Shown here: one piece after another, positions 1 through 42,815 of the stretch | How the letters are laid out: every line of letters starts with the position of its first letter | Numbering within the stretch: the first letter of the stretch is position 1 | DNA from: Candidatus Woesearchaeota archaeon | GTDB taxonomy: Archaea; Nanobdellota; Nanobdellia; Pacearchaeales; GW2011-AR1 | Length of the DNA: 47,975 nucleotides | Assembly: GCA_964408125.1 (NCBI GenBank) | Contig: CAYOYC010000002.1 | Coordinates: forward strand, 1-47,975 | Direction: 5' to 3' | Made by a program: the position numbers and the translations under genes | The notes under the pieces: model-generated | The model's database searches: none | Told to the model about the DNA's origin: nothing | Seen by the model: the letters and a program-made list of their open reading frames with translations, nothing else

Positions 1-61
1 GCACTGGGTCAATCATTAGCACGCCCCGGGCTTTAGCCCGCGGGTAGTTGACATTGAGCAA

Positions 62-12788: not shown

Positions 12789-12837
12789 GTGTTTTAGAGG
12801 ATAGGGTCTTTTTTATAGGTTTTGTTTTAACTTAAAA

Positions 12838-13719: not shown

Positions 13720-13755
13720 GGATAGGATTATAAATATTGTTTTTCTATTTTTTAT

Positions 13756-14991
13756 ATGGTGTTAAACAAAAGAAAGAGTGCGATTTATTTTGTATTGGCC
13801 TTGTTTTTTATTTTCCAAATTATTAGTCTAATAGGTTTTTCTAATGCGGAGGAAGCAGTGATAAGTTTTACATTTAACGCTGGAGATGTTATAATATACG
13901 ATAGTCATGCTTATAAATTTTTGAAAAATACTGGAGATATTAAGGGTATAGATAAAAAGAGTGTGCTCAATGAATACATTCTAAAATTGGGTGAAGATTC
14001 AGAGAATTTTAATAAAACATTTATTAGGCTTAATAGATCGGAGGAGTGTGTTGCATTGAGGGAGAATTATGTGGATAATAATGAAATTACATATAAACCT
14101 GGAGATAATCCTTGGCTGAGTAAGGATTTCTGGGAAGCGTTTTTTTATGTAGACCCGTGTTCTTTGGATATGTTTCAAGACAGTGTGGGTAGGGGTTGGA
14201 ATTTTACAAAGAACCAAACAAGTATCAAGATAGGTTGGATGTTTGGAACAAATACTTTTTCTGGCGAGAGTAAATTATTCCCAATGCCCTTAGCTTTTTT
14301 CCCGTTTAGAATATGGTCCGTTTATCCATTAAAAAGAATTATTGAGGAGGGGGATGGATTTGACTTGGGAGATTTTGCTTTTATCCTTGTATTGGCCTTT
14401 GTTTTTGTTATATCGAATTTAATTGTTGGGTTCTTTATTCAAAAATTGACAAGGTCCCACTGGGGTTATTTAAAAAAAATAATTGTAGGGGCAGTAGCAA
14501 TCGCATTTATTCCTGGATTTTTTATGACTAGAAATAGCTTGTTTGCATTTATGTGTTTAATATTTTTTACTATAATGCTTTGGATTAGGATGGATTATTT
14601 GATGAAAAAGAAATATAGTAGGGGTTTTTCTTTTAATCTATTGAATTTATATGGGTCGTTGTTTCCGGCCAGGGTTCCGGCCGCGAGAAGTTTAACATTT
14701 TCCCTGATGGATAATTTTGAGAGTCGACTCTACTCTGTTGAATTTATTCTTTTCCTTCTTTATCCATTTTTAGGCTCCGTTCCTGTAATAAATGTTATAC
14801 TATCATTTTTAACTTTAGAAGTTTTATTTGCACCGTTATTCTGGAGGGCGTTACTTTGTACGTTTGTTTTGTTTATGCTAGTACAGTTTTGGCCGATGAT
14901 ATCTAGATATAATAAGAAGAGAAGGTTGTACAAAAAGGCTATGGAAAAGGTAGCCGGAGAAGAAGTTCTGAAGGAAATGGGTCGTGCTTAA
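13756..14991 (+). CDS. Polytopic membrane protein with ~190-aa N-terminal ectodomain, paralog array member
   Basis: Signal sequence, then a soluble N-terminal part, then TM helices. The C-terminal module is SVPVINVILSFLT ... ISRYNKKRRLYKKAMEKVAG. Confidence 0.65.
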   Translation: MVLNKRKSAIYFVLALFFIFQIISLIGFSNAEEAVISFTFNAGDVIIYDSHAYKFLKNTGDIKGIDKKSVLNEYILKLGEDSENFNKTFIRLNRSEECVALRENYVDNNEITYKPGDNPWLSKDFWEAFFYVDPCSLDMFQDSVGRGWNFTKNQTSIKIGWMFGTNTFSGESKLFPMPLAFFPFRIWSVYPLKRIIEEGDGFDLGDFAFILVLAFVFVISNLIVGFFIQKLTRSHWGYLKKIIVGAVAIAFIPGFFMTRNSLFAFMCLIFFTIMLWIRMDYLMKKKYSRGFSFNLLNLYGSLFPARVPAARSLTFSLMDNFESRLYSVEFILFLLYPFLGSVPVINVILSFLTLEVLFAPLFWRALLCTFVLFMLVQFWPMISRYNKKRRLYKKAMEKVAGEEVLKEMGRA

Positions 14992-15021
14992 ATATTTAAA
15001 CGTTAATTCTATTGAATTAGT

Positions 15022-15885
15022 ATGAGTTGGTGGGAATCATTTATTAATTTCTCTGGGAAGGAGGTTATTGATAGTGGTAGTTATATTTTTGGGATAGTTA
15101 TATTAATCGCAATTTTTGCGTTGTTGTTTTTTTTATCGAAGAAGAGTAAAATTAGCAAGGGTTTTTTGTCGGCTGTGATTATTATTTTGGTTGCATTTTC
15201 CATTTATTGGGGCATGCTTGGAATAAAAAGTTGTGTTATCACATCTGATCAGTTGGCGAAGGCCGCCAATGGTACGGGGTTTATGAATAGCACTCTTTGG
15301 CCAGCTTGGAACTGGATGAGGGGCAACGTTTTGGGTTGTGGCAAGGAATTGGGATGGGGCGGCAGGCTTTTGCGTGATGTTGGCAAGGTGTTAGGATTTG
15401 AACAGACCATGGGAGATTTCTTCTTAGATTTTCTAACTGGATTTGTCGCGGGAATATTTTTGTGGTTAATTTATATTTTAGCTTTCGAGTCTGAAAAAAT
15501 AGGACAACTTTTTAGAACAAAAATGAAAAATAATTTGTATATTCCCGGAAAAGAAAACATGGGTAAACTTAAATCAAGTTGGCTATCTATTATTGCTAGT
15601 GGGATTATTCCATGGAAGGCGATTGTTATTGGTGCATTTTATGCAGTGCTTTTACAAATACCTTTCTTAAAAACTGCTATTGAGTTTATCACGTTTAGTA
15701 AGTTTTTAGGTGTAGAGATAGGTATTCCGGTTTTAATTAGAGCAATAATAATTGCATTTTATTTTGGATTATTGCCTACAGCAATTGAATCGTATAGCAG
15801 ATATAAGATTAGAAAGGAATTATATACTAAATTACTGGAAGTAAAGGCTGGAGTTAAGGCTGCAAGAACGCTTGGGAGTCAATAA
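15022..15885 (+). CDS. Polytopic membrane protein, paralog array member
   Basis: C-terminal module QIPFLKTAIEFITF ... ESYSRYKIRKELYTKLLEVKAG. Confidence 0.65.
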   Translation: MSWWESFINFSGKEVIDSGSYIFGIVILIAIFALLFFLSKKSKISKGFLSAVIIILVAFSIYWGMLGIKSCVITSDQLAKAANGTGFMNSTLWPAWNWMRGNVLGCGKELGWGGRLLRDVGKVLGFEQTMGDFFLDFLTGFVAGIFLWLIYILAFESEKIGQLFRTKMKNNLYIPGKENMGKLKSSWLSIIASGIIPWKAIVIGAFYAVLLQIPFLKTAIEFITFSKFLGVEIGIPVLIRAIIIAFYFGLLPTAIESYSRYKIRKELYTKLLEVKAGVKAARTLGSQ

Positions 15886-16622
15886 TGAAAAAATTATTGT
15901 TTCTTTTCTTATTGTTTTTTTTATCTTTTGTAGTTGTTTCGGCAGAATTGAGTAAAACTGAAATAGATGTGATAAATAGTAATTATTCTGCTGGGAAAAA
16001 TGATGTTAGTTTTTTGGGAAGATATTATTTGGCTCTCAAACAGAGCGATATTTCTGTTTGGGGAATTTTAAGTTTTGAAAGAAGTTCTTGGAATGAGTTA
16101 GAAGATGTTTCTAAATTTATATCTGGAGATTTGCTGGGGTTTGATGGTTATCAAAAATTTAATAATTCTGAATATGGTTTAATTGTGGGATTTTTTGCAG
16201 GATTAATTTTATGGATTTTTTGTAAATTTAGAAATCTTTATTTAGTGTTATGCTCTTTTGTTAATCAAAAACAATATAAGTCGTATGATCCGGAAAAGGA
16301 CTTGAAATTAAGGACGAGTGTAGAGTGGATTAATTTTATGGCGGGAAGATTTTGGAAGGTTTTTTTAGTAGCAATCGTATTTTTTGTTTTAATGTATATT
16401 CCTATTTTAAACAGAATTGTTCAGATATTAAGTTTTCAATTTCTAGACATTAGTATTCTGGCTCATTCACTTATTCTTTGTATATTAATTGGGATTTTAC
16501 CCCAGCTAATACAAAATTATTCTAATTATAGAATAAAAATACATCTCGAGAAAAGGCTTTTAGATATGAAGGCTGGTGCAAGAAAGCAAGAAATTGAAGG
16601 GCAAGTTGTTAGAAGAAGATAG
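15885..16622 (+). CDS. Polytopic membrane protein, paralog array member
   Basis: The start overlaps the upstream stop by 1 nt. Signal sequence present. C-terminal module YIPILNRIVQILSF ... QNYSNYRIKIHLEKRLLDMKAG. Confidence 0.65.
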   Translation: MKKLLFLFLLFFLSFVVVSAELSKTEIDVINSNYSAGKNDVSFLGRYYLALKQSDISVWGILSFERSSWNELEDVSKFISGDLLGFDGYQKFNNSEYGLIVGFFAGLILWIFCKFRNLYLVLCSFVNQKQYKSYDPEKDLKLRTSVEWINFMAGRFWKVFLVAIVFFVLMYIPILNRIVQILSFQFLDISILAHSLILCILIGILPQLIQNYSNYRIKIHLEKRLLDMKAGARKQEIEGQVVRRR

Positions 16623-16623
16623 T

Positions 16624-17718
16624 TTAGGAAGCACCTGGTCGGTGCATTCGTGCTAATAGTATTCTGATTAGTAGACTTTCGGGGTCCTCGTTTTGACGGT
16701 CGTTATTAAGTGTTCTTAATAATTGTGTTGCTTGTATATATTTTGCTAAATCTTCTATTCCCGCGCCAGGTGCAAGTCCCAATTGTATATTTCCATTTTC
16801 ATCTGTTTGAACTCCGAACTTCGGAGCACTTTGTTTTTGTTTCTTTGCAAATAAGTCGTATGCTTCGTTTATTAATCCGTTTTGTATGGAGTAAGCAAAT
16901 AGTGTGTTAGCATCAGTAATTCCTGCCGTTTTAAGTTGTGCAGCTGTAGCTTCATATTTTTTCATTCTTTTTGTATCAGCTAGGCCATTTGCGAGTCTTC
17001 CTATTGGGCTTGGGTGAGTTTGCGCATAAGCTTGTGCTGCATTTCTATAGTCGTTTATGTCATTAGCTACCGGCTTCGTGTCGATTCCAAGCCTATATTT
17101 TGCTCTTTCAAGTAAATTTCTTGAATGCCTTACTAGTTTAATCTGGTATGGGTTTAGTTTCTTTATTTTTTTATTGAAAATATCTTCTTCTCTTTTAAAT
17201 TTCCTTCTTTCCTTCTTTCTTAAGCCATCCAATGTTTGTTCAGCTTGTGTTGCTTGTGCTTTTCTTGCTTCTCTTGGATCTATAATTCTACTAGGATCGT
17301 CAATCTCCTTTCCTTCGTTTACTTTCGAGTAGAAATTATCTAGCATTTGATGATATTCCTGGCAGGATGTATAAGCATCGATCCCTTTTGATGTAGCTGC
17401 TATGGCTAGTTTTGCTCCTTCTCTAATTCCTCTTCCGACGTATTTAACTCCGCTCCATAAGTAGCTTAATCCAGTTTCAGCTGCTGCTTTAGTGTGAGCG
17501 TATAATGGTTTTGATAAAAGCGTACCGCCTGCTAAAGCACCGACTGGTCCGCCTAGTAAATATCCCGTTGTGGCACCCAGAACTCCAGTAGCACCAACAT
17601 ATTTCTCGAGGCTATTTTTTAATTCTGTTCTTCTTGCATCCTTTTCTGCCCTCATGTCATTGGCTAAAGCCATAAGAGATGCTGCCCTTGGGCTCATGTA
17701 TGAATATGTGTTTGTCAT
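16624..17718 (-). CDS. Hypothetical Ala/Gly/Lys-rich protein with a glycine-zipper segment
   Basis: GATGVLGATTGYLLGGPVGALAGGTLL near the N-terminus. The rest is hydrophilic and helical-looking. G+C is visibly higher than in the flanking genes. Confidence 0.6.
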   Translation of the reverse strand: MTNTYSYMSPRAASLMALANDMRAEKDARRTELKNSLEKYVGATGVLGATTGYLLGGPVGALAGGTLLSKPLYAHTKAAAETGLSYLWSGVKYVGRGIREGAKLAIAATSKGIDAYTSCQEYHQMLDNFYSKVNEGKEIDDPSRIIDPREARKAQATQAEQTLDGLRKKERRKFKREEDIFNKKIKKLNPYQIKLVRHSRNLLERAKYRLGIDTKPVANDINDYRNAAQAYAQTHPSPIGRLANGLADTKRMKKYEATAAQLKTAGITDANTLFAYSIQNGLINEAYDLFAKKQKQSAPKFGVQTDENGNIQLGLAPGAGIEDLAKYIQATQLLRTLNNDRQNEDPESLLIRILLARMHRPGAS

Positions 17719-17896
17719 GTTTTTTGTTGTAAAAAGAGTTTTGGTGTTTTATTTTCCTGGCTCTTTTTGTATGATTATTCTAAGTGGAGGGGGTATTTAA
17801 ATCTTTTGTTTTTGTTACTACTACATAGTTTACATAAAGTGTTTAATTAAATGCTGTTCTGGATAGATTTAAAAGTTTTCAATTTGTCTATATTTT

Positions 17897-18784
17897 ATGA
17901 AAAGAGTAATGAAGTTATTTTTTATGTTATTGCTAGTGATTAATATATTTTCATTTGTTATAGGGGTTAGCGCTAGTATTGATTCCCAGGTGGAGGATGT
18001 TGCCAATACTGCAGACAAGAGTATTCAGGAAGTAGATAGATTTCTTAGTAGTAGTGAGGCGAGAAGTGAATATTTAAAACAAGAATGGCTTAAAATTACA
18101 CAGTCTCAACCGTTTGGTAAATATATTTTACCAGTTCATAATTATCTAATTTTACATAAGCAGGTTTTTGGATATCTTTTGGGAATAAATTATCAGTTCT
18201 CTTGGAAGTTTTTTTTAGCCTTTATATTTTGGGTCGTTCTTGTAGTGTTTTGCTTTAGAATAATTAGGGGGCTTGTTATGTTTATAATGGCTTCAATTAT
18301 ATTAGTAAAAAGGTCTGAACGCGATTTTGGGGAACTTATTAGAAGGCCAGGTGTGATGATGTGTATAAATTTGATTTTATTTTTGGCTATAGTTTTGTTG
18401 ATTTCTGTGGTAAGGGTACCATTGGGGCTAGCAATCGTGGTTTATGGCATATTTTCTAATGAAACTAGTTTGATTATGAGAATAATATATGTGGCGGTTA
18501 TAATTGGAGGAGTGTATTTGTTAAATATGATTTATAAGGAAATGGTTTACTTTTCTAAGATATATAAAGATGCGAGGAAACAAAAGACGATAAGTGATAC
18601 GGTAAAGAGGATAGAGGATGAGTTGGAGGATTTTAAATCGGGGAAGAAAAAAATTATTGCACAAGATTCTATGGAGATGGCAGGTGCCAAATCTTTTTCA
18701 GAAGAAGAACAACAGCAAGCTGACGAAGAAGAGGCATTGGCTCAAGCCAGAGAAGACGTTGATGGAATTACAGACGAAGAGTAG
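17897..18784 (+). CDS. Polytopic membrane protein with acidic C-terminal tail, probable distant paralog array member
   Basis: Signal sequence and TM helices. 'RVPLGLAIVVYGIFS ... YKEMVYFSKIYKDARKQ' has the same layout as the 13756/15022/15885 proteins. Confidence 0.6.
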   Translation: MKRVMKLFFMLLLVINIFSFVIGVSASIDSQVEDVANTADKSIQEVDRFLSSSEARSEYLKQEWLKITQSQPFGKYILPVHNYLILHKQVFGYLLGINYQFSWKFFLAFIFWVVLVVFCFRIIRGLVMFIMASIILVKRSERDFGELIRRPGVMMCINLILFLAIVLLISVVRVPLGLAIVVYGIFSNETSLIMRIIYVAVIIGGVYLLNMIYKEMVYFSKIYKDARKQKTISDTVKRIEDELEDFKSGKKKIIAQDSMEMAGAKSFSEEEQQQADEEEALAQAREDVDGITDEE

Positions 18785-22924: not shown

Positions 22925-23236
22925 TTATTCTTGTAGCATCTTGCTTGCTCTTATTCCTGCTTTTCTGTCTTTGCCTTTATTGCAAGTTAAGCAGATATAT
23001 AGAAGCTTCGCCTTTTTAGTTGTTTTAGTTTTCATTTTGAACTTAGTGACTGCTGGTTTAGAACCCCATTTACCCTTATTGCCAATTCCTCTTCCTTTTC
23101 CTCTAAGTTTTGCTCTCATAATACCGCCTCTTTTTAACGCGCCTCTTTTATTTCCAGAGCTAACTATCTTTATTTTTTGTTCAGTAGTTTTATTGCAATA
23201 TGGGCAATATCTATTTGTTTTTTTTGGAATCTTCAT
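22925..23236 (-). CDS. rpl44e: 50S ribosomal protein L44e (eL42)
   Basis: 'MKIPKKTNRYCPYCNKTTEQKI' and 'LLYICLTCNK' form the zinc ribbon. A TATA (tttataaa, 23259-23266) lies about 27 nt upstream of ATG 23236. The listed 23323 start adds an implausible extension. Confidence 0.9.
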   Translation of the reverse strand: MKIPKKTNRYCPYCNKTTEQKIKIVSSGNKRGALKRGGIMRAKLRGKGRGIGNKGKWGSKPAVTKFKMKTKTTKKAKLLYICLTCNKGKDRKAGIRASKMLQE

Positions 23237-23306
23237 AATATGAGAGTTACTAGATGGGTTTATAAAGTTTCGTGTGTCTATAGTTGCGCAGTGACCGTGG
23301 GATAAT

Positions 23307-23322
23307 TGCGGCTTTCGCCGCA
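23307..23322. other. GC-rich hairpin TGCGGC-TTTC-GCCGCA (GAAA tetraloop on the minus strand)
   Basis: Read directly. It lies between the palindromic TATA of rpl44e and the 23364 gene. Confidence 0.4.
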
Positions 23323-23333
23323 CGATAAGTAGT

Positions 23334-24223: not shown

Positions 24224-24246
24224 TAAAAGCTCCGTGAATAATTATT

Positions 24247-24317
24247 GATTCCATAGTATAATGGCAGAACAAAACCTTGACGTGGTTTAGACCCAGGTTC
24301 AATTCCTGGTGGAATCA
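24247..24317 (+). tRNA. tRNA-Val (anticodon GAC)
   Basis: Acceptor GATTCCA/TGGAATC, anticodon stem AAACC/GGTTT, loop TTGACGT, T arm CCAGG-TTCAATT-CCTGG. The D stem has one mismatch. Confidence 0.85.
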
Positions 24318-24368
24318 TTATTAGACGTCACAAATATATTTATATATCTAGTTTTTCTTGTTTTCTTA

Positions 24369-26204
24369 ATGGGAGTGATGAACAAAAGAGGTCAGGTAAC
24401 TATATTCATAATTTTAGCAATAGTTTTAGTTGTGGGTATTATTTTGTATTTTGTTTTTAATGGAGGTTCTTCGTCTGTAATCTCAAAGGATCTACAATCT
24501 GGGGAGGATGCTTATAAGTCGTGTATAACCGAACGGGTTAAGCTTGGAATTAGTTTGCTTGGGCAACAGGGCGGATATATATATTTAGATGAGTTGGAAT
24601 TTTATTCTGGAAGCCTGTATATGCCATCGTCTTCTCAGTTGGATTTTTATGGGAATGCGGTTCCATATTGGATGTTTGTTTCTGGAAATAATATTTTGAG
24701 AGAGCAGAAGCCCACAAAACAAAGTATGACTACAGAGTTAAGAAGATTCATATCAGAAGGTATTAATTCTTGTAATTTTGATAACTTAAATAGCGAGGGA
24801 ATTTATGTTGATGTTTACGACGGAAATATAGAGGTGGATATAAGAGATACATCAGTGGAAGTTACGCTAAATAATCCAATTTATATTTCATTTGAGGATC
24901 AATCGGCTACAATTAGTAATCATAAAATATCTATAAATTCAAAATTGGGTAAATTTTATAATTTAGCTACTGTGGTTTATAATAAAGAAAAAGAAGATGC
25001 ATTTTTGGAAGAATATGGATTAGATGTAATGCAACTGTATGCACCAGTTACTGGAGTTGAATTTACGTGTACTCCTATGTTTTTTAATGATGCTCAGGTC
25101 AAGAAAAATATTAGCCAGGGTTTGGAAGATAATATTGCATCTCTGAAAGTTTCTGGAAACTATTATGATTTAAATGATCCGCAACATTCTTATTTTGTCG
25201 TCGATGTTGGAGAAAACGTGGACGAAAATGTTAATTTTGTTTATTCTAAAAATTGGCCAACTGGAATAGAAATGTTTGGAGATAGACTTGTTCAACCAAT
25301 AGGAAATCAGCAGGGGCTTGGGATGTTTGGATTGTGTTTTGTTCCGTATCATTTTGTTTATAATATTAATTTCCCCGTTTTAATCCAGTTTTATGACAAT
25401 GGTGAACTTTTCCAATTTGGAGTCGTTGCTGTTATAAAGAATAGTCAGTCTAGAGAGGCGTTGTTGGCTGATGAAGAAACCCTTTCTGGCGAGCAGATAT
25501 GTGAAAATTCTAATGCAAATATAGATGTTTCTGTGTATGATTTAGATTTAAATCCAATTGTGGCAAATTTAAGATTTAGTTGTCTTGGCCAATCTTGCGA
25601 ATTAGGCAATTCTGTAAGTGGTTCTGGAAATTTCGATGTGCCAATGTGCGTCAATGGTGTTTTAGATGCTTATGTAGATGGATATGCACCAGCTTCTGTT
25701 AGTGTGTCTACGAATAGAGAGACGAGTGCTAATATATTAATGAAGAAAATTTATGATGTGAATGTTTCGGTGGGCAATCAGGATAAAATGAGTATTGTTT
25801 TTAGTTCTTCAGACTATAGTTCTGTATTAAATTATCCAGATGAAAAATCTGTTAAATTAGTAGAGGGTGGGTATAATATAACGGCATTTGTTTACAAAAA
25901 TACGTCGATTAATTTTGCTGGATTAAAAGATAGAAAGTGTTTGGATGTTCCATCTAGTAGTATTGGTGGAGTATTTGGGGCAACAGAGCAAAGGTGTTAT
26001 GATATTGATATACCAGCTCAGGAAATTGATTCGGCATTAGTTGGAGGAGGGAAGGCCTTTGATTATTTTACAGAGGAACAATTTTTAGATTCTCAATATT
26101 TGAAAATATCTGTCCCTATGTTTGGTGTTCCACAAAAAATAGAAGATTTACAAAACAATTATTTAGAATGGGAGGTTTCAAGGATTGACTTGACTTTTGA
26201 ATGA
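24369..26204 (+). CDS. Large extracellular protein with prepilin-like (class III) signal peptide
   Basis: The N-terminus MGVMNKRGQVTIFIILAIVLVVGIILYF has a basic stretch, then G, then a hydrophobic helix. A TATA at 24334-24347 favours ATG 24369. The listed 24309 start overlaps tRNA-Val. The stop overlaps the next ATG (ATGA). Confidence 0.7.
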   Translation: MGVMNKRGQVTIFIILAIVLVVGIILYFVFNGGSSSVISKDLQSGEDAYKSCITERVKLGISLLGQQGGYIYLDELEFYSGSLYMPSSSQLDFYGNAVPYWMFVSGNNILREQKPTKQSMTTELRRFISEGINSCNFDNLNSEGIYVDVYDGNIEVDIRDTSVEVTLNNPIYISFEDQSATISNHKISINSKLGKFYNLATVVYNKEKEDAFLEEYGLDVMQLYAPVTGVEFTCTPMFFNDAQVKKNISQGLEDNIASLKVSGNYYDLNDPQHSYFVVDVGENVDENVNFVYSKNWPTGIEMFGDRLVQPIGNQQGLGMFGLCFVPYHFVYNINFPVLIQFYDNGELFQFGVVAVIKNSQSREALLADEETLSGEQICENSNANIDVSVYDLDLNPIVANLRFSCLGQSCELGNSVSGSGNFDVPMCVNGVLDAYVDGYAPASVSVSTNRETSANILMKKIYDVNVSVGNQDKMSIVFSSSDYSSVLNYPDEKSVKLVEGGYNITAFVYKNTSINFAGLKDRKCLDVPSSSIGGVFGATEQRCYDIDIPAQEIDSALVGGGKAFDYFTEEQFLDSQYLKISVPMFGVPQKIEDLQNNYLEWEVSRIDLTFE

Positions 26205-29200
26205 TGGCGTTAAAAATATACATTTGCATTGCGTTAATGTTTTTATTAGCAGGGGTAGGGGCTGCAGCATTTACCAATCCTGCTGCTACAACTGTGAGTT
26301 CTTCTGGTCCAGGTTATCAATTTACGAATCCTAGTATATCTAGTATGTATTCTTCTTCGGATATATCTACATATTGGCCGGCACTTGCACAGCAAATGGA
26401 AAGTGGACAATGCGAGGGGAATACTGATTTCTTGGTTATGATTCCACCTGGAGGATGTAGTCCGGCAGTTGTGAGAAGCGATTTATTGGAAGAGCAAAAT
26501 GTTCCAGTGTTTTGTCAGCTTGAATCTGTCAAAGTTAATCCGTTAATAAAAGTTTCGTCTATAAAATCAATTTCATTTAAGGGTGCGTATCCTGGAGAGA
26601 TTTCAGGAGTTAGTTTTTATCCTTCTCGAGCAGCTCTAAAAAGCTATACAACTTTATTAGGGAGTCCAATTGTAAACAATATTGGTTATGTTGTTATCGT
26701 TTTGAAAAAACAGAATAATGAAAGTTCTATGGCAAAAAATGTTTCTGGAAGTTTAACTGCTACAATGTATTATGATGCAGAAAAGGCTTTTGGCGTCGGT
26801 GCTTCGGAGTTTTATTTGCAAACTATGAATGAAAATGATTGGCAAACCGATTGGGCTCAACAAACTTTCTGGGGAGGAAGAGGTGTTATGAAGTTGGTAG
26901 ATATACAAAGAGATGAGGTGACTGTAGAAGTTCTAACTAATAACCAAGATGTTATTAGAAGTGTTAAATTAAAGGTTGGTGAGACAAGCAGCGAGTTTTA
27001 TTTCCCGGGATTTTATTGTCAGGCTGGGATGAAGTTGAAACTAAATTCTATTGTTTCTCCGGAAGATTCTGTTTTGTTGAATATAGATGGCACAACGATG
27101 GATGCAAGAGTTGGAACGAAATTAATAAATGGTAGGTGTACTGTTAAATCTCTTGATGTTTTTGCGGGAGAAACTGGCACTGTAAAGATAATTTGCGATG
27201 GGAAGGCATTCGATTTGAGTTTGTTAAATAATTATAGAGCGAATTTTACAGTTGGGGATAAAAATTCAATTCGTGATTTGGGAGATGTTGTTAATTCTTC
27301 TACTGATAATAATTTGTATTTGGCTTATACTGGATACGTAAGTGGAGCGGAGTATGCGGGTATGAGTGTTGGTACAGAATTTGTTGTTTTGATAAAAGAT
27401 AAAACAGCGCCAGATAAAACTGTTTACTCTCAAATTGCTACTAAGATAGAAAATACATTCAATGGACTGGCTGCGGGCATGAGTATGGATGCGCTTAAGG
27501 TAGCGATAAGAGTTGGTAAATATACAAATGATGATTTGATTATTTTAAATAGAACAGAGAGTCTTCCTGATATTAATTTTAATGGGTTTGTGGATAAAGA
27601 CAGCAATCCAATTAGTGGTGTTGCAAGTTCTGTAGAGAATAATGATGCGAGCGAGTATTTTGAAGCAGGAGATGAGGCTATACAAGAATTATTAAAACAA
27701 TATCCAACTACTACGCCAACTACAACAACCGTATCTACGCAACAGTCTTTCGGAGAGCAAGGACTTTTAGAAGAAATAGATTTGATTAGGGCATCTGAAG
27801 GGAAATTAGATTACAGCGGTAAAAAAATAGAATTAATGAATAGATTTTTAGAACTTTATCCAGAGTCTCCGAATGCTAATGGTGTAAGATCTGATTTATC
27901 GATGGCACAGAGAACAGATTCAACTAATGCGTATAGAACTATTTATGTAAACAATGAATATCATTCTATCGGGGTTGTTAAGTTTAAGCCAACAGATTCT
28001 ACGGGTAAGGGTGTTGAATTGTTGGTGGATGGAAAAGTTGTGAAAGATGATGAAAGTGGGAGTTCTGTCTTTAAAGTGGGGCAAAGTGTTAATTTATCTA
28101 AAATTGCAGGAAATTATCCAGGTAGAAAGGATTATTTGATTATAAAAGATATAAAGGTTGATAGGATTATCGTTGATGCTTATAATGATACAGAATTAAA
28201 ATATAAAGATCAGGATATTATGTTTGGGGAGAATTCAGATGGTACTCAGAAATATAAGGAGTTTAGCTTTGATAAAATTAAATATAAAGTTGTATTAAAT
28301 GATTTAAATGTCAAAAAGGTTGCGTATGTTAGTTTGGTTTCTAATTTGAAAACGAGTTCAGAAGCGAATTTTACTTATAATATAGGAATTGAAAAAAGAG
28401 CTATACAGTTGAATCCAGAAAAAGCAATGGATAGAGCTAGTGAATTGAATAAAACAATACAAAGATGGGAAGAAAAAAATGCGAAGATTGGATCTTTGGT
28501 GGAAAAATGGAAGGGTGTTTGTTTAGCTACGGGGTTGGCCCTACAGGTTAAGAATTTTGTAAGTGGTTTATCTGGTGAAAGTTTTGCAAGACAGAATGTT
28601 ATGATGGTATATAGATCAAAGTGTGAGAATAGTGCAATAAATCCTAAGACTGGCGAATCCTATAATAAGGCTAGTAGTGATGTTTGTTATAATTCCTTAT
28701 CTGATGAGATTGCAAAAGATGTCGATGCTTACTCTGTGGCAGTTGAGAGCGTAAATGACGAAATAGAAACTTATGGTGGTAAGTTGGATAGTTGGAAGTC
28801 GAGTGGATCATGTTCTATAGTGATAGATGGATGTAAAGAAAATGTTCAGGCGAAAGATTTGAATTCGTGGGCAGATGTTAGACAGTGCTTGTTAAATAAA
28901 AAAATACAGGTATCTAGTGCAACTCAAGATTTGAAAAATGATGTAAAAACTAGAACGGAAGGACAATTGAGAGCAGCTTGCGAAAATAAACAGCAATCTC
29001 AAGCGTTGGTAGATATAGCGGATCAGTTGCCTGAAGGATTTAAAGAGAGCGCAATTGTTTTACAGGATAATGTGAGGAAAGATTATAGTTTGGAGAAATA
29101 TCAAACTGTTGCGGCTACTAATCTCAAGGGGAAGATAATGAATATATCTCCAAATGAAGGGTTTGTACAATTAAGTGCATTGTTGGATTCTAATAAAGAT

Positions 29201-31849
29201 AAGAACGTTGGGGTTGCTACAACTATGGTTGGGGCTGATTATAAGTTGATTGTTATTACAAATTTAGCTGGAACACCAGTTCCGAGTGTATATAACATTT
29301 CTAGTCCAAGTGGTTCCAATTATCAAATTACAGGATTAGATAATGATTTACTTAGGAAAATTAGTGTTTCACAGATTGCAGGTAAAAAGTGCGCATATAA
29401 ATATACAAATCCGACGGTGAGATATTATGATAGCGAACCGAATAAAGGGATGCCGGCAATTACTCCGATTGATTTGAATACAGGATGGTATGTGTATATT
29501 CCGCAAACTCAGGGTGGAGTTTTATCCAGTGGTGTTCAGGGATATCAATCATCTGGAGCGGTGCAATTTTATTATTTATGTAATGTTGGGAGCAATGGTA
29601 GAGAGGATATGAAGGGTAATGATGATATTTGCCAGAGTTTCAATATTAATAATTATAATAATGTGGATGCATTTAGTGGTTGTTCAATGACGAGGTCAGA
29701 AATACAATCAATGGCTAAGAAAGCAGAAGATGTTATTAAGCGTGTGGCTAGTCAATATAAAGATGGGGTTAGCAGTGTAAATATACAGGGAGTTGGGGAT
29801 AATATTAATGTAGGAGCGGGGATGTCGGGAGATGGAGATTTATACCAGTGTCAGGATTTTATGAGTCCGGAAGATTGTAGAATTATGTATAATGTTTGTG
29901 ATCCGGTTATATGTCCGCCATCGAGATGTAATTTTGGTGGGAAGATACCAGTTGCAAATGTAATTCAATCTGGAATAATTGGAAGTTTGGTTTTATGTCT
30001 TCCTAATTCTATTTTACTCAAGGGAGATGTTTTAATCCCAGTTTGCTTAACGGGAATACATGCAGGCATTGAGGGATATGTTTCTATTTTGAAAGCACAG
30101 CAGGCTTGTTTAACTGAATATGCAAAAACAGGAAAACACGTGGGTATATGTGATGAGATGACTGCAGTTTACAAATGTGAATTTTTCTGGAGACAGGCTT
30201 CGCCGTTGATACAAAATATAATTCCAAAATTATTTGAGTTTGCTTATACGGGAGGCTATAATAAACAATCAGGTGGTGGAGAATATGCTATTTTCCAAAG
30301 ATCTTGGGACAATATGCAGAAGAGTATTGATTATTTTAAGAATACATATGCATCGACTTCTTTCACTGCCTTGAAATTTGGAAATGTTCAAGAAGTGGGT
30401 TCGTCATTTTGTAAGAATTTTATTGGGACATCTTTACCTACGTCTGCTAATGCTTTGGATGCTATGTTAAAACCAGAATCTCCTTCGCAGTTTTATGGAA
30501 AGTTTTCAGAAATACCGTTGACGGATGCGACTGTTCCGGCTAGTTCGCAATATAAGGTTTATTATCATATTTATGCAGGAACAGATCAGGGTGTGAGATA
30601 TACTGTTTATTTGAAGAATCCACCAGCTACTAGTTATTATCAAACTGCGCAGACTGTTGTGGTAAAACAGGGATACATTGCGCTTGGTGAGCAGGCAGAT
30701 GAGGCTATTGATTTTAGCGCGCCTGCAGGATATAAGGAATTGTGTATAATAATAAATAATCAAGAAGAGTGTGGGTTCCAATCCATTTCTACTGAATTTA
30801 CTATTAATTTAGTTCATGATATGTATGCTAAAGAACAGGGTAATACTGAAAATATAGAAACTGAAAAAGAATGTATACAGGGCAGCCCGTCTGTTTTGGC
30901 GTTGGCAAATACAAATTTGGAAGCGGGTGCGGATGAAGCGATTAATCCAGATATTTCCTTGAGAGGAATAAATAGAGTGTGTGCGACTCAAAATCCTGGG
31001 CAGGGAACGAATAGTGTTAATTGGAAGTCGGTGGGCTTTTGTGGAGACCAGAAACTAACTTGTTGGCTGGACTTGAGTTCGGTAAATAATGACGCGATGA
31101 ATGTTTTGAAAAAAGTTGGAACGATTGCGAATACTCGGGAAGTTTTAAGCGGGAGTGACCCGAATGTGCAATATAAAGACGATTTATATAATAGTGCGGT
31201 GAAGATTGAAGAGCTGAAGGGTGATATAAAGAAATTAAAGGAAGTAAGGAAAACGGAAGACAATAATATTGATAAGAGTGTTGATCCATTATTGGTAAAG
31301 ATCGAAGATGTAATGAAATATGCCTATTCGGATGCGAATAAAGCAGAGCTTTTATTATTGAAATATAGAATGTATGAGGTTGCGACTAGGGTGATGTTGG
31401 GGATAAAATTAGAAAATAGTGCTCCTCTTAAGGCTGTTACGGCTACCGCGGATGCCTCAACTAATACTCCTGTCGTAGTCGCTCAGACTATTAAAAAAAT
31501 AACAAGAATAACATTTAATGATAATTATGTTATAGAGGATATAACGTCCTCTTCATCGCTTTTAAATAAACCAGATTTGCCGGTCGGTGAACCCATTAAA
31601 ATGGGAATTGAGAATGATTGTGCCTCACTTAGTGTTTACAGACAAAGACTGAGTGGCGTACTTTGGGGTCTTTTTGATTCTAGTTTAACAAGTGATGTTG
31701 ATGGAGAGTATTTGGTTGGGGACAGTTTCTCTGATGGAGATGAGATTGTATTAAGGGTGAAGTGTCTTGATTCTGAGGATAAACCACAGCAGTCTTTGCA
31801 TATTACCGTTAGTTTTACAAAAGTATTATTAGGAACGGTTGATTCTTAA
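26201..31849 (+). CDS. Giant (1882-aa) secreted Cys-rich surface protein, no recognisable family
   Basis: Uninterrupted ORF with Sec-type signal MMALKIYICIALMFLLAGVGAAA/FTNP. It has a Thr/Pro linker PTTTPTTTTV, many NxS/T sequons and many paired Cys. There is no C-terminal TM segment. Confidence 0.8.
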   Translation: MMALKIYICIALMFLLAGVGAAAFTNPAATTVSSSGPGYQFTNPSISSMYSSSDISTYWPALAQQMESGQCEGNTDFLVMIPPGGCSPAVVRSDLLEEQNVPVFCQLESVKVNPLIKVSSIKSISFKGAYPGEISGVSFYPSRAALKSYTTLLGSPIVNNIGYVVIVLKKQNNESSMAKNVSGSLTATMYYDAEKAFGVGASEFYLQTMNENDWQTDWAQQTFWGGRGVMKLVDIQRDEVTVEVLTNNQDVIRSVKLKVGETSSEFYFPGFYCQAGMKLKLNSIVSPEDSVLLNIDGTTMDARVGTKLINGRCTVKSLDVFAGETGTVKIICDGKAFDLSLLNNYRANFTVGDKNSIRDLGDVVNSSTDNNLYLAYTGYVSGAEYAGMSVGTEFVVLIKDKTAPDKTVYSQIATKIENTFNGLAAGMSMDALKVAIRVGKYTNDDLIILNRTESLPDINFNGFVDKDSNPISGVASSVENNDASEYFEAGDEAIQELLKQYPTTTPTTTTVSTQQSFGEQGLLEEIDLIRASEGKLDYSGKKIELMNRFLELYPESPNANGVRSDLSMAQRTDSTNAYRTIYVNNEYHSIGVVKFKPTDSTGKGVELLVDGKVVKDDESGSSVFKVGQSVNLSKIAGNYPGRKDYLIIKDIKVDRIIVDAYNDTELKYKDQDIMFGENSDGTQKYKEFSFDKIKYKVVLNDLNVKKVAYVSLVSNLKTSSEANFTYNIGIEKRAIQLNPEKAMDRASELNKTIQRWEEKNAKIGSLVEKWKGVCLATGLALQVKNFVSGLSGESFARQNVMMVYRSKCENSAINPKTGESYNKASSDVCYNSLSDEIAKDVDAYSVAVESVNDEIETYGGKLDSWKSSGSCSIVIDGCKENVQAKDLNSWADVRQCLLNKKIQVSSATQDLKNDVKTRTEGQLRAACENKQQSQALVDIADQLPEGFKESAIVLQDNVRKDYSLEKYQTVAATNLKGKIMNISPNEGFVQLSALLDSNKDKNVGVATTMVGADYKLIVITNLAGTPVPSVYNISSPSGSNYQITGLDNDLLRKISVSQIAGKKCAYKYTNPTVRYYDSEPNKGMPAITPIDLNTGWYVYIPQTQGGVLSSGVQGYQSSGAVQFYYLCNVGSNGREDMKGNDDICQSFNINNYNNVDAFSGCSMTRSEIQSMAKKAEDVIKRVASQYKDGVSSVNIQGVGDNINVGAGMSGDGDLYQCQDFMSPEDCRIMYNVCDPVICPPSRCNFGGKIPVANVIQSGIIGSLVLCLPNSILLKGDVLIPVCLTGIHAGIEGYVSILKAQQACLTEYAKTGKHVGICDEMTAVYKCEFFWRQASPLIQNIIPKLFEFAYTGGYNKQSGGGEYAIFQRSWDNMQKSIDYFKNTYASTSFTALKFGNVQEVGSSFCKNFIGTSLPTSANALDAMLKPESPSQFYGKFSEIPLTDATVPASSQYKVYYHIYAGTDQGVRYTVYLKNPPATSYYQTAQTVVVKQGYIALGEQADEAIDFSAPAGYKELCIIINNQEECGFQSISTEFTINLVHDMYAKEQGNTENIETEKECIQGSPSVLALANTNLEAGADEAINPDISLRGINRVCATQNPGQGTNSVNWKSVGFCGDQKLTCWLDLSSVNNDAMNVLKKVGTIANTREVLSGSDPNVQYKDDLYNSAVKIEELKGDIKKLKEVRKTEDNNIDKSVDPLLVKIEDVMKYAYSDANKAELLLLKYRMYEVATRVMLGIKLENSAPLKAVTATADASTNTPVVVAQTIKKITRITFNDNYVIEDITSSSSLLNKPDLPVGEPIKMGIENDCASLSVYRQRLSGVLWGLFDSSLTSDVDGEYLVGDSFSDGDEIVLRVKCLDSEDKPQQSLHITVSFTKVLLGTVDS

Positions 31850-31853
31850 ATAA

Positions 31854-32708
31854 TTATTCTACAAGTGGGACAAGGGCATCGAAATCTACTGAGCCAAATA
31901 TTAATCTTTCTGCGGGTGTAGTATTTGTTATTGCTGGTGTTGGCGTGTATGGTATTTTAACTAGTTTTCCTTCAACGGGTCTTGAGATATTTCCTCTTAT
32001 AGAAAATTTCTCTCTTGCATTCCCTTGTGAATCGAATGTTGTTGTTCTTTGTGCCCCTTCAGTTGGGTCAACTAGCATAAAATTTGTAGAGCCAACACTA
32101 TTTGTTCCAGAATAAACAGAATCTAATGTAGGGATAACCAAGTAATTATGAGAGCCAATTCTGCTGAAGTTTACAGTGCTAATATCTTCTCTTGAAGGAG
32201 ATACTGTTACGACAGAAGAATTTTTACCTGTTTGTGTTGTATATGGCCTAAATGAATTGGTGTTGCTTCCTATTGTTATTCTAGTAGTTTTAACGGCGCC
32301 AGTATTTACTGAAGTTACTCCCGGTGATGTAGCGATCACGTTAACTGGGAAATACATTTTTCCATTTCCAGTCGATGTCACTTCTCCATTTTCTTGGTCA
32401 AATTCAGAGTTTGCTAGTTCGCAGAGATAAACGCCCATTGTACTTGTTCTTGGAAGTATTTCATCGCCAACCTTTGCAGTCATTCCAGCTGGTATTGATT
32501 TAACAAAATAAGGTGTTCTTTCTTGGATGCCATTCGCTTTTTTTGTAAGCGGGCTTAGAACTGGAACATTATATCCCCTTGTTTGTGCGGCATAATCTGA
32601 GCCAGACTTAACATTAGATACATCTACTCTGTCAGTATTAAAAGATGTACATCCGACCAAAAATGATAAAAGTCCTCCAGCGATTGCATTTCGTGATATA
32701 TTTCTCAT
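31854..32708 (-). CDS. Lipoprotein-like secreted Ser/Thr/Asn-rich protein
   Basis: N-terminus MRNISRNAIAGGLLSFLVGC with a lipobox-like LVGC. A TATA lies about 25-30 nt upstream of the ATG. Confidence 0.6.
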   Translation of the reverse strand: MRNISRNAIAGGLLSFLVGCTSFNTDRVDVSNVKSGSDYAAQTRGYNVPVLSPLTKKANGIQERTPYFVKSIPAGMTAKVGDEILPRTSTMGVYLCELANSEFDQENGEVTSTGNGKMYFPVNVIATSPGVTSVNTGAVKTTRITIGSNTNSFRPYTTQTGKNSSVVTVSPSREDISTVNFSRIGSHNYLVIPTLDSVYSGTNSVGSTNFMLVDPTEGAQRTTTFDSQGNAREKFSIRGNISRPVEGKLVKIPYTPTPAITNTTPAERLIFGSVDFDALVPLVE

Positions 32709-32808
32709 AAGTTTGTTACCAAAAAGACATTTATAAATCTTTTGGTTTTGTTACTATTAAGTAATTAATACAAAATGAAGAGGTGTTTTTTATTCGCAAA
32801 ATAATTAA

Positions 32809-32891
32809 TGGGGAGAAGAGGACTCGAACCCCTGTAAGCGTAAGCTACGACGGCCTAAACGTCGCCCGTTTGACCACTCCGGCATCTCCCC
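32809..32891 (-). tRNA. tRNA-Leu (anticodon UAG), class II with long variable arm
   Basis: The reverse complement folds as GGGGAGA...CGACG-TTTAGGC-CGTCG-TAGCTTACGCTTAC-AGGGG-TTCGAGT-CCTCT-TCTCCCC-A. Confidence 0.9.
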
Positions 32892-32942
32892 ATGATAGAA
32901 TTAGGGGTTTTGACTAGTATAAAAAGATTTGTTTTAGGGAAA

Positions 32943-40877: not shown

Positions 40878-42815
40878 ATGAGTAAATTTCGAGGAGGGCT
40901 GGTTGGGGCTATAGCTGCGGGTCTTCTATCTTTATCTGCGAATGTTTTGGGTGCGAATAATTATGTTTGGACAGATCCCTGGAGGGTTAAGGTTAGTTGT
41001 GATTTAAAATCTGCAGAGGGTGATGTATTAACAAATGCGGTTGATGTTTCTATGGAACAGGGGATAGATAATATTGCAGTTAGTGTGCTACCCAGAGATA
41101 TGGGCGAGAATTCTTCATGTATTCAATTAGATGGTAGGCGTAGTTCTGTTACTATTGCCCATCCTGGTTTAAATCTTGGAGATGGAGGACTTGTTGAATA
41201 TAAAAGAACTGAAGATAGAACTAAATATGTTGTTAAGGGGAAGGGCACGACAAATTTCTTGTCTGAAGAATTGGTTTCTCCAAAAAGATTGGAGGATATT
41301 CTTCCTGGATTTGGCGAGATTGCTCGTCGAGAAAGACCGGAAGAGCAATTTTCTATTTCACGTGTAGAGACTTCTTTTAAAAATGAAGGAGTGGGTATGA
41401 ATATTAAGGAAGAAAGTATAGATCAAATTCGTGGTACAGTGCGTGGCATTGCCGAACAGCTTGATGTTTTGAGGGTAGAACTTAATGTTGTTAACTCACC
41501 TGTCCAAAGGAGCAAGTGGTCTGGCGATTCATCTTTTTTTATAGCTGATGATGGGAATATTTATTGTTCTTATGATGGTAAAAATTATAGTATTGGTGGT
41601 GGTGAAGTTCAGGATAGGCTTAAAAATATTCCTCTCAGAAAAAAAATAGAAGATAGTAATAGGGAAAGATTGGGCTGGTATAGACATTATCAATTTGTTT
41701 TTAGTACAGATTCTGGTTCTATTGCAAGAGAGCCATTGGTGGGTGTTTTAGCTAAGCCGTCTTTTTTAATTGGGGGCAAAGAATATACTACACCAGAAAT
41801 ATTATTTAGAATGCAGTTGGATAAAAAGGCTACAGTTTCTGAGTATAAGGATGACAATGTTGCATTTATTAGACACCCCAATACTGAGGTGCTTGATTTT
41901 GTTGGCAGAGAGTTTGTGTGGGGCAACCCGAAGGGATATCCTCATTCTATCCCCGTAGAAAGATCTTGTATTAATGGGGAGTGGGTTAGATATTGGAATG
42001 TATTAATGGATGGTGTTAAAGACAGGGGAGTGAGGGGGATAGAGTATGTTAATTTTGGGCAACTAGAAGGAATAATTGAACAAAAGAATCTCGTGGTTCT
42101 TAGGGATTTAACTAATGGGAGGAGAGCACTTTATGTTAGGGAGGGGGAAACTATTAATGATAGCTGGGGCACTATTAAGCCAGGAGAGGGGATATTAGAT
42201 ATTCCGCCTGAATTTATTGGTTCGGTTTCTGATGTTGTTAGGTTTAATCAGCTTTCACCATTAGTTGTAAGATCAAAGTCATCCGTTGGAGCAGTTCTAA
42301 GTAGAAATATGCGTCCAGGGAACGATATTCCCGAATTTTGGATAGCTTCGGATGTGAAATATGAAGCGGCTGCTGAGAGAAGGAAAGATGAAAACTTGGG
42401 GGAGATACCTGTTAGACAGTTAGCTTTAGGCATAATGATGAATGGATATAGGGCTAGTCCGGCAGATTTTTGGTTTTTTATGGACGATGATTATTATAAA
42501 GCGACTAAGGGGAGGGGCTTTGAGGTACAAAATATATCTTACCCCATATTTCATACATACATGGAAACGCAAGTTTCGAACTATCAGAATAAACAATTGC
42601 TTTCTCCTAGAAAAACAAATATTCCTGGAATTTATTCAATTCCCTTTAAGGATGATGGTTCGTTTCATGATGTGGAGATAATAGGTTCAAAATCTTCAAA
42701 TGGTATGTTGGTTGGTGGTAAGGATACACCATTAGGGCTTAGTGAAGTTATATCATATTGCGTTTGGCCAAAATTATTGCCTAGTGCGGCTGCTGAGGAG
42801 CTTCTTGGAAAGTAG
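40878..42815 (+). CDS. Secreted 645-aa hypothetical protein
   Basis: Signal peptide MSKFRGGLVGAIAAGLLSLSANVLGA. No TM segment elsewhere and no recognisable motif. G+C is higher than in the neighbours. Confidence 0.6.
   Translation: MSKFRGGLVGAIAAGLLSLSANVLGANNYVWTDPWRVKVSCDLKSAEGDVLTNAVDVSMEQGIDNIAVSVLPRDMGENSSCIQLDGRRSSVTIAHPGLNLGDGGLVEYKRTEDRTKYVVKGKGTTNFLSEELVSPKRLEDILPGFGEIARRERPEEQFSISRVETSFKNEGVGMNIKEESIDQIRGTVRGIAEQLDVLRVELNVVNSPVQRSKWSGDSSFFIADDGNIYCSYDGKNYSIGGGEVQDRLKNIPLRKKIEDSNRERLGWYRHYQFVFSTDSGSIAREPLVGVLAKPSFLIGGKEYTTPEILFRMQLDKKATVSEYKDDNVAFIRHPNTEVLDFVGREFVWGNPKGYPHSIPVERSCINGEWVRYWNVLMDGVKDRGVRGIEYVNFGQLEGIIEQKNLVVLRDLTNGRRALYVREGETINDSWGTIKPGEGILDIPPEFIGSVSDVVRFNQLSPLVVRSKSSVGAVLSRNMRPGNDIPEFWIASDVKYEAAAERRKDENLGEIPVRQLALGIMMNGYRASPADFWFFMDDDYYKATKGRGFEVQNISYPIFHTYMETQVSNYQNKQLLSPRKTNIPGIYSIPFKDDGSFHDVEIIGSKSSNGMLVGGKDTPLGLSEVISYCVWPKLLPSAAAEELLGK

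Follow-up and report, generated by a model that had tools for sequence, protein, structure and literature searches.

The question raised by the 47,975-nucleotide (nt) stretch of contig CAYOYC010000002.1 from Candidatus Woesearchaeota archaeon, which was analysed over its full length and is referred to as the window, is what an exported protein of 1882 amino acids (aa) without any recognisable domain could be doing in the midst of housekeeping genes. Woesearchaeota and Pacearchaeota represent a large share of archaeal diversity, and to our knowledge none of them has been cultured and neither a host nor an attachment mechanism is known for them. The examination of this giant protein and its relatives leads to a two-gene module, in which the giant is encoded directly downstream of a partner protein of 611 aa, and to a protein family that is built from a conserved scaffold of about 1700 residues and a polymorphic C-terminal module.

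The giant gene cannot be a chance open frame, because ln P for the absence of a stop in 1882 codons is about -139 at 35% GC. It forms a single uninterrupted open reading frame (ORF) covering 11.8% of the window, which bears out the coordinates and the share of 12% given in the first-pass annotation of this DNA. When the proteins of neighbouring genes of the window were compared by tblastn with 82 related loci, the partner was found directly upstream of the giant and on the same strand in 78 of them, the other four lacking upstream DNA, and hence the partner is obligate in 78/78 informative loci. The stop codon of the partner gene overlaps with the start codon of the giant gene, and this overlap recurs in 48 of the 64 loci that could be evaluated, with a median gap of -4 nt, which argues for translational coupling and a roughly 1:1 production of the two proteins. 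Such pairing and overlap support the earlier proposal of a co-transcription of the giant with a gene encoding a prepilin-like signal. The pair is vertically inherited and not mobile, since genes encoding TFIIB (52 of the 82 loci), an L44e-like ORF (48), S3Ae (47), S8e (42) and NDK (29) recur around it. An origin from a mobile element or a virus was considered and rejected due to this strict synteny with NDK, S3Ae, L44e, TFIIB and S8e.

The second defining feature of the family is the variability of its C-terminal end. Tails of 71 species-representative relatives, cut after about residue 1725, were scanned with Pfam and revealed SLT in ten, VanY in two and Glucosaminidase, GH3, DUF1615, DUF2272 and Peptidase_M10 in one each, with no recognisable family in the remaining tails. 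Precomputed Pfam assignments add amidase_3 and polysaccharide deacetylase (both in P0111) and Hydrolase_2 (P0042), so that a tail carries one of ten different Pfam families or none. Among 119 other listed homologs, precomputed Pfam assigns SLT (PF01464) to 11, and neither SLT nor any other Pfam domain was found by Pfam in the giant or its tail. SLT is thus an accessory tail module of about 10-15% of the members and does not define the family. Furthermore, when the C-terminal 130 residues were compared across 280 members, many clusters without relation to one another emerged (53, 46, 9, 7, 7 and on). It is this combination of differing Pfam families and unrelated tail clusters that establishes the architecture of a constant scaffold with a variable tail. 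In about one of six species, it contains an enzyme for which bacterial peptidoglycan is the sole substrate.

The tail of the giant itself is a predicted beta-sandwich, non-catalytic and with one Cys pair (1807/1855). Its links to other tails are weak, namely 27% identity over 95 aa to the P0057 tail with E 0.004 in a small database, and a pattern, xxCxS...C[LF][DK], held in common with 7 of 279 other tails, and an iterative hidden Markov model search with this tail retrieved nothing from the 71 tails. By these BLAST and pattern links it resembles only a rare 'HDCDS...YCLD' cap. This cap is a terminal beta-sandwich with a conserved Cys pair, in which H[DN]C[DN]S is separated by about 45-55 aa from YC[LF][DK] at the extreme C-terminus, and examples are found in P0045/L008, L041, L061, L072, P0057 and P0292, besides the segment of the window listed in the table below. 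In P0045 the cap is present even behind SLT or NlpC-like modules, and this recurrence suggests that tails are assembled from shuffled cassettes.

With regard to distribution, a word-indexed search returned at least 779 homologs of 1650-2970 aa, whose full-length identity to the giant ranges from 66% down to about 36% over >90% of the length and which originate from metagenome-assembled genomes (MAGs) of Pacearchaeota, Woesearchaeota, Nanoarchaeota or an unclassified 'archaeon'. When each GTDB species, represented by one genome, was scanned with the signature peptides Cxx[ML][FY]NVCDP and CPxSRC[ND][FL]GG, at least 599 matches were obtained and at least 560 species genomes were confirmed. Using core residues 1060-1640 as the query, an exhaustive phmmer search of 1.84 billion representatives retrieved 1050 clusters (50% identity), of which 902 reached E<=1e-30, and the hits make up one tight family without a tail of remote relatives. 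All of the best 80 species-genome loci are MAGs of Woese-, Pace- or Nanoarchaeota apart from three with odd labels, which are 'Methanococcoides sp. SA1' (L002/P0098), 'Aenigmarchaeum sp.' (L063) and 'bacterium' (L070). The flanks of the first of these (NDK, S3Ae, TFIIB, S8e) match the arrangement of the Woese/Pace type, and the odd labels are probably errors of binning or labelling. Judged from these sequence searches, the giant family is confined to the DPANN lineage of Woese- and Pacearchaeota type.

This family has very probably been encountered before. Castelle et al. 2021 described a family (fam00969) of "large extracellular murein-lytic transglycosylase" proteins, which are secreted, reach about 3000 aa in length and are confined to their lineages (PMC8204110), and the label of a large lytic murein transglycosylase was repeated later (PMC9723730, PMC10936187). 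Attachment to bacterial walls has been proposed for such large extracellular SLT proteins (PMC8204110, PMC9723730). The identity of the two families is drawn from the description and not from accessions. Full-length homology, lineage restriction and an extracellular signal are shared, and SLT-bearing relatives align with the giant at 36% identity and 95% coverage (P0076), at 37% identity and 67% coverage (P0098) and, for the 2970-aa P0111 with SLT, amidase_3 and deacetylase, at 44% over the best segment. The difference is that the published annotation rests on SLT alone, which is absent from the giant. The giant, which the first-pass annotation placed in an uncharacterised envelope system, therefore belongs to a family that had come to notice in 2021 because some members carry SLT, and that is still functionally uncharacterised. 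The published accounts of the SLT-bearing family consulted here describe neither the obligate partner nor the polymorphism of the tails nor the conserved core with its roughly 1700 aa. New are thus the obligate partner, the optional nature of SLT as a tail, the domain and conservation map and the lack of a fold-level relative.

The composition of the giant is that of an exported and cysteine-rich protein. The N-terminal h-region, MMALKIYICIALMFLLAGVGAAA followed by FTNP, has a Kyte-Doolittle (KD) hydropathy of 2.0-2.4 and ends in AAA, and it is the only strongly hydrophobic segment of the protein besides a moderate one at the hairpin described below. Equivalent h-regions ending in small residues are found across the relatives, with a family median KD hydropathy of 3.0. 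No hydrophobic C-terminal anchor could be observed by hydropathy either in the giant or in 82 relatives, and no internal repeats were found in the giant. A Thr/Pro linker, PTTTPTTTTV, is located at residues 502-511 (nt 27704-27733). The giant contains 37 Cys (2.0%), as compared to roughly 0.7% in most other proteins of the window, and ten of them are packed in 110 aa, where shuffled sequences have 6.05 on average. Of the 36 Cys of the mature protein, 30 are conserved in >=98% of 57 relatives, and the six non-conserved ones lie in a variable region (871-927) and in the tail. Since this number is even and the location extracellular, the 30 conserved Cys point to about 15 disulfides, with metal sites as another possibility. 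NxS/T sequons number only 11, versus 18.4 +/- 3.9 in shuffles, and are hence depleted. What the first-pass annotation had observed in the giant stood to a large extent, including the ORF, the Sec-type signal (by hydropathy, with an equivalent in all relatives), the position of the Thr/Pro linker, the many closely spaced Cys, the absence of a C-terminal anchor and of a repeat architecture, and the gene boundaries. Its claim of many sequons did not, and the claim of glycosylation should be dropped.

The ten packed Cys form a cluster which holds the family signature C..[ML][FY]NVCDPVICP.SRC[ND][FL]GG. Within this most conserved stretch, two predicted helices (1249-1268 and 1277-1298) constitute a hydrophobic hairpin, with Cys1266 and Cys1282 at its flanks. 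A classical pair of transmembrane helices was considered for this hairpin and rejected, because its mean KD is only about 1.27 family-wide and conserved N, Q, H and E residues are located inside it.

For a domain map, AlphaFold2 (AF2) models were built in two parts with 58-sequence alignments, covering residues 24-870, with a mean predicted local distance difference test score (pLDDT) of 78.2 and a predicted template modelling score (pTM) of 0.64, and residues 700-1882 (pLDDT 70.1, pTM 0.47), and were read together with the identity to the query in blocks of 40 aa. The comparative map, which had been recommended in the first-pass annotation, separates conserved blocks at residues 64-343, 704-863 and 1064-1623 from the variable part beyond 1624. 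The N-terminal beta-rich domains, with 40-69% identity per block, are modelled mostly as strands at pLDDT of about 80-94 and contain invariant Cys at 71, 86, 105, 273, 313 and 332. They are followed by a variable insert, which contains the Thr/Pro linker and ends in a helical TPR-like stretch. Many relatives do not have this insert, and it is the region missed by homologs with about 67% coverage. The next predicted domain is a beta-sandwich, corresponding to residues 555-708 of the N-part model (all strands, pLDDT about 82-93), and it precedes a 'stalk' of helices of 52, 17, 24 and 33 residues with invariant Cys 774, 808 and 829. The conserved core is arranged in the order of an alpha/beta domain, a Cys-rich helical domain (1217-1423), an Ig/FnIII-like beta-sandwich (1430-1526) and a small Cys-containing alpha/beta domain. 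The scaffold ends in a three-helix bundle (helices 963-985, 991-1008 and 1012-1034 of the C-part model, pLDDT about 84-89).

Table. Features of the partner-giant module and their location in the window.
Feature	Residues of giant	Window positions	Strand	Basis or remark
TATA-like element ATATTTATATAT		24336..24347	+	about 22-30 nt before partner start, just downstream of tRNA-Val
Partner gene		24369..26204	+	611 aa; directly upstream of giant
ATGA overlap		26201..26204	+	partner stop TGA, giant start ATG; read from sequence
Giant gene	1-1882	26201..31849	+	ATG 26201 to TAA 31849, 1882 aa
Sec-type signal peptide	1-23	26201..26269	+	hydropathy; predicted cleavage between AAA and FT
Ser/Thr-rich disordered linker	24-55		+	AF2 and conservation map
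N-terminal beta-rich domains	64-343	26390..27229	+	best-conserved N-terminal block
Variable insert	344-543	27230..27829	+	12-22% identity, gap fraction up to 0.42
Beta-sandwich domain	578-731	27932..28393	+	AF2
Long-helix 'stalk'	739-941	28415..29023	+	helices in both AF2 models
Variable alpha/beta region	944-1063		+	AF2 and conservation map
Conserved core	1064-1623	29390..31069	+	35-73% identity per block; AF2
Cys cluster	1217-1326	29849..30178	+	alignment; 10 Cys, all >=98% conserved
Hydrophobic helical hairpin	1249-1298	29945..30094	+	conservation; AF2 helices, pLDDT 50-78
Three-helix bundle	1662-1733	31184..31399	+	closes conserved scaffold
Ala/Thr-rich linker	after 1733		+	before tail module
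Polymorphic C-terminal module	1767-1871	31499..31813	+	AF2 strands, pLDDT 55-75

None of these domains could be connected to a known family or fold. Pfam, NCBIfam and PHROGs searches with the giant, the partner and a lipoprotein-like protein encoded next to the giant yielded nothing above noise, and PDB profile searches started from alignments of the giant (A1) and of the partner (A6) reached best E values of 0.02-0.2, all of them spurious. Structure prediction followed by Foldseek, as had been advised at the outset, revealed no match at E<=1e-3 with either AF2 model against PDB or with the C-part against BFVD, and the only similarities were generic ones to FnIII, ApaG and RhoGDI-type or Ig-like beta-sandwiches (E about 0.01-0.1). 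Because family, profile and fold searches were all without a significant match, the original statement that there are no recognisable domains stands. On the predicted models, the core domains would have no fold-level relative and their folds would be new. A comparison of partner and giant by hhalign detected no domain shared by the two.

The partner family is likewise without Pfam domains, and comprises at least 799 unnamed homologs of 604-674 aa that are 45-78% identical to the partner of the window. The GTG start at 24309 given for the partner by a mechanical ORF list was rejected, as it overlaps with the tRNA-Val gene (24246-24318), which lies immediately upstream of the operon, and the real start is either ATG 24369 (the gene-caller version of 611 aa) or ATG 24378. 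The TATA-like element in front of it is a candidate for the operon promoter, and a scan for bacterial promoters and terminators was uninformative for an archaeon. The partner begins with MGVMNKRGQ followed by VTIFIILAIVLVVGIILYFVF, and continues into an ectodomain of about 580 aa with invariant Cys. In its prepilin-like form, this N-terminus would read as MGVMNKRG followed by QVTIFIILAIVLVVGIILYFVF, that is a short basic leader, Gly at -1 and a hydrophobic stretch. Across the family it consists of a short basic leader, [KR][GAS]Q and about 21 hydrophobic residues (QVTIFIILAIVLV...). By eye, the motif [KR][GAS]Q[VIL][TSA][IL]F[IV]I is found in nearly all of 77 loci, and Q6 is invariant in the A6 alignment. 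The partner has Q+1 and T+3 without E+5. In form, the N-terminus can thus be regarded as a putative class III or prepilin-like signal or as a signal-anchor, and the partner could be the anchor subunit of the giant.

The window, which has about 34% GC, also contains genes for TFIIB, S3Ae, S8e, NDK, SRP54, FtsY, GINS and a ProRS-like protein. The presence of TFIIB, S3Ae and S8e, together with relatives in MAGs of Woese-, Pace- and Nanoarchaeota, agrees with the initial assignment of this DNA to an archaeon of DPANN type. Almost all 2-kb bins have a positive GC skew, with a peak over the giant gene (0.26-0.44), whose coding strand has G markedly in excess over C, and the cumulative skew climbs almost monotonically over 48 kb, with a dip only at 20-24 kb. 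Two further elements had been included by the first-pass annotation in one envelope system with the pair, and both were rejected as parts of it. One is the convergent lipoprotein-like gene at 31854-32708 on the minus strand (284 aa, lipobox-like …LLSFLVGC followed by TSF), which ends 4 nt (ATAA) past the stop of the giant gene, exactly as had been reported. By tblastn it was found in 0/82 related loci, and due to this absence it looks like a lineage-specific insertion between the giant and tRNA-Leu (32808-32892), outside the conserved module. The other is the array of six to seven ORFs at 12300-18784 encoding multi-transmembrane or signal-bearing proteins of 162-411 aa without a Pfam match, which was linked in 0-3 of the 82 loci. 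Of the three genes whose joint synteny had been suggested as a check, partner and giant therefore stay together and the lipoprotein-like gene does not. Elsewhere in the window, a secreted-looking protein of 645 aa with an N-terminal hydrophobic segment is encoded at 40878-42815 (plus strand), and it has neither a Pfam or NCBIfam match nor a counterpart in the related loci examined. A small ORF at 22925-23323 (minus strand) with 3.8% Cys and a CPYC motif is located beside S3Ae in 48 of the 82 loci. This ORF probably encodes ribosomal protein L44e, whose true start would be internal, at MKIPKK…, and the L002 equivalent has a weak Ribosomal_L44 match.

The reading favoured here, at about even confidence, is a complex of partner and giant at the cell surface, anchored by the partner and stabilised by disulfides, which would bind or breach the envelope of a host with its variable distal end. 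The complex would be held at the membrane by the N-terminal helix of the partner. This helix would be a signal-anchor or would undergo prepilin-type processing, a route known from pilin-like surface proteins, and in the latter case it may act as a class III signal similar to that of bindosome proteins. The conserved N-terminal domains of the giant, proposed as the end proximal to the partner and the cell, would bind the partner, the helical and beta domains would project as a multi-domain, disulfide-stabilised stalk, and the variable C-terminal module would be the distal end that binds or locally degrades the host envelope. In the source organism, the tail module is a predicted non-catalytic beta-sandwich and would therefore serve adhesion and not lysis. 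Published work backs this reading indirectly, through the proposed attachment of SLT-bearing members to bacterial walls (PMC8204110) and through the enrichment of Pacearchaeota in the >2.5 um size fraction, which suggests a strong attachment to hosts (10.1101/2020.05.14.094862). The suspicion of host attachment voiced by the first-pass annotation fits the peptidoglycan-degrading tails of relatives and the earlier literature (PMC8204110), and its view of a secreted DPANN giant with a partner was retained. Its inclusion of the lipoprotein gene and the array and its sequons were not.

Several observations weigh against this surface complex. About 80% of the tails, that of the giant included, have no recognisable function, and no structure or profile match was found that ties the core domains to adhesion. 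The Pfam Class_IIIsignal model (QxSxExxxL) does not match the partner at E<=1, and neither a prepilin peptidase nor a pilus ATPase was found among the scanned ORFs of the 48-kb window. Components of type IV pili are moreover reported to be missing in DPANN genomes (10.1101/2020.05.14.094862), and no pilus is claimed for this reason. Contact between partner and giant, and their surface location, are predictions from the genes. Lastly, a near-universal pair among housekeeping genes would equally suit a structural role in the envelope.

Such a structural role could take the shape of an S-layer-like main envelope pair, with the giant as the canopy and the partner as the membrane-anchored stalk in the manner of SlaA/SlaB, and with the enzymatic tails as occasional add-ons. 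We regard this as unlikely, though it would agree with the vertical inheritance of the pair in a housekeeping neighbourhood, one operon for a large anchorless secreted subunit and a smaller anchored one, Ig/FnIII-like beta-sandwich domains, and the fact that no S-layer gene was identified in the window. It has to contend, however, with the lack of any known S-layer domain family or solved S-layer fold in the giant by Pfam, NCBIfam, PDB profile and Foldseek searches, and with an atypical composition consisting of 30 conserved Cys, depleted sequons and long as well as Cys-rich helical domains. An identity in the core of up to 73% per block would be unusual for fast-evolving S-layers, and separate 'S-layer protein genes' are among the top transcripts in a Woesearchaeota metatranscriptome (PMC11606122). 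A role in the organism's own envelope that is unrelated to hosts, such as assembly, division or budding, would agree with a universal, single-locus pair syntenic among genes for ribosomal proteins, NDK and TFIIB and with the strong conservation of the core. It is nevertheless considered very unlikely, since an archaeal envelope offers no substrate to peptidoglycan-specific modules and a tail that is polymorphic at the distal end is typical of proteins facing other organisms, while synteny shows vertical inheritance and not necessarily function.

Two further explanations differ in what the giant would do once outside the cell. After the tail has bound or breached the wall, the conserved hairpin might enter the host membrane and provide a conduit for nutrients, as alpha-helical pore-formers do. 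The hairpin and its flanking Cys are indeed among the most conserved parts of the family and lie in a predicted helical domain, accessory modules that degrade the wall would make the host membrane accessible, and a minimal metabolism requires resources of a host (PMC8204110). This membrane activity, an attractive idea built on conservation and analogy, is distinctly improbable, however, in view of a hydrophobicity that is only moderate (KD about 1.27), the conserved residues N, Q, H and E in the hairpin, the lack of a fold match to colicin, diphtheria-T, Bcl-2, Cry domains or viral fusion proteins, and a pLDDT of only 50-78 in a region that may simply be the hydrophobic core of its domain. Least probable of all is a freely secreted exo-enzyme or toxin, in some species a murein hydrolase, with the partner as an unrelated protein or a helper in secretion. 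A Sec signal without an anchor, the SLT, VanY, glucosaminidase and amidase modules of relatives and the literature label 'lytic murein transglycosylase' (PMC9723730, PMC10936187) would be in line with it. Most members, including the giant, have no catalytic domain, though, it is difficult to see why a soluble enzyme should carry about 1700 aa of non-enzymatic scaffold, and the strict coupling to an anchored partner argues for retention on the cell.

The favoured surface complex has counterparts among known systems without being identical to any of them. By analogy it resembles the bacterial type IV pilus tip adhesins PilY1/PilC with minor pilins, in which a large Sec-exported protein without an anchor is co-encoded with a prepilin-type protein and has a proposed role in the contact with other cells. 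It differs in that the giant has no PilY1/PilC domain or beta-propeller match by Pfam and Foldseek, in that a single partner with about 610 aa takes the place of several small minor pilins, and in that no pilus machinery is present in the window. The Sulfolobus bindosome consists of large globular, substrate-binding surface proteins with a class III signal of the form [KR]-G/A followed by a hydrophobic stretch. In contrast to these, the partner has an ectodomain without similarity to solute-binding proteins and no Glu at +5. Its Gln straight after Gly is reminiscent of EppA-type substrates among the archaeal DUF361/EppA-type pilins. SlaA/SlaB of Sulfolobales share with the pair a two-gene operon of a large anchorless and a smaller membrane-anchored subunit, but there is no sequence or fold similarity, and in the present case the anchor is N-terminal, the gene order is reversed and the giant is Cys-rich and sequon-poor. 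Polymorphic toxins, polyvalent proteins and phage tail-associated lysins likewise combine a conserved N-terminal scaffold with swappable C-terminal modules such as SLT, amidase or carboxypeptidase, whereas the giant has no Rhs/YD repeats, pre-toxin domains or conserved downstream immunity gene, and many tails of its family are non-enzymatic. SPEARE proteins of Nanohaloarchaeota are, like the giant, large secreted DPANN proteins suspected of interacting with a host, but they are set apart, by their description, through protease, adhesion and restriction-endonuclease domains, none of which Pfam detects in the giant.

A more far-reaching proposal, which we hold to be speculative and improbable, is that the pair represents the missing host-penetration apparatus of Woese- and Pacearchaeota, in which the tail would recognise or cut the host wall and the highly conserved, disulfide-stapled hairpin would form a conduit through the host membrane. 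If true, it would constitute a class of cell-cell bridging machine that is novel at the level of folds, the wall in question would be bacterial murein wherever the tail contains SLT, VanY, amidase or glucosaminidase, and the type of tail would predict the type of host envelope. Irrespective of the mechanism, the locus is one of very few surface candidates that are both lineage-wide and lineage-specific, with at least 560 species genomes, and the optional SLT, the constant partner and the modular tail turn a vague transglycosylase annotation into a concrete two-protein target. Should the tails track host envelopes, genomes would for the first time reveal whether the host of a given DPANN lineage is a bacterium or an archaeon.

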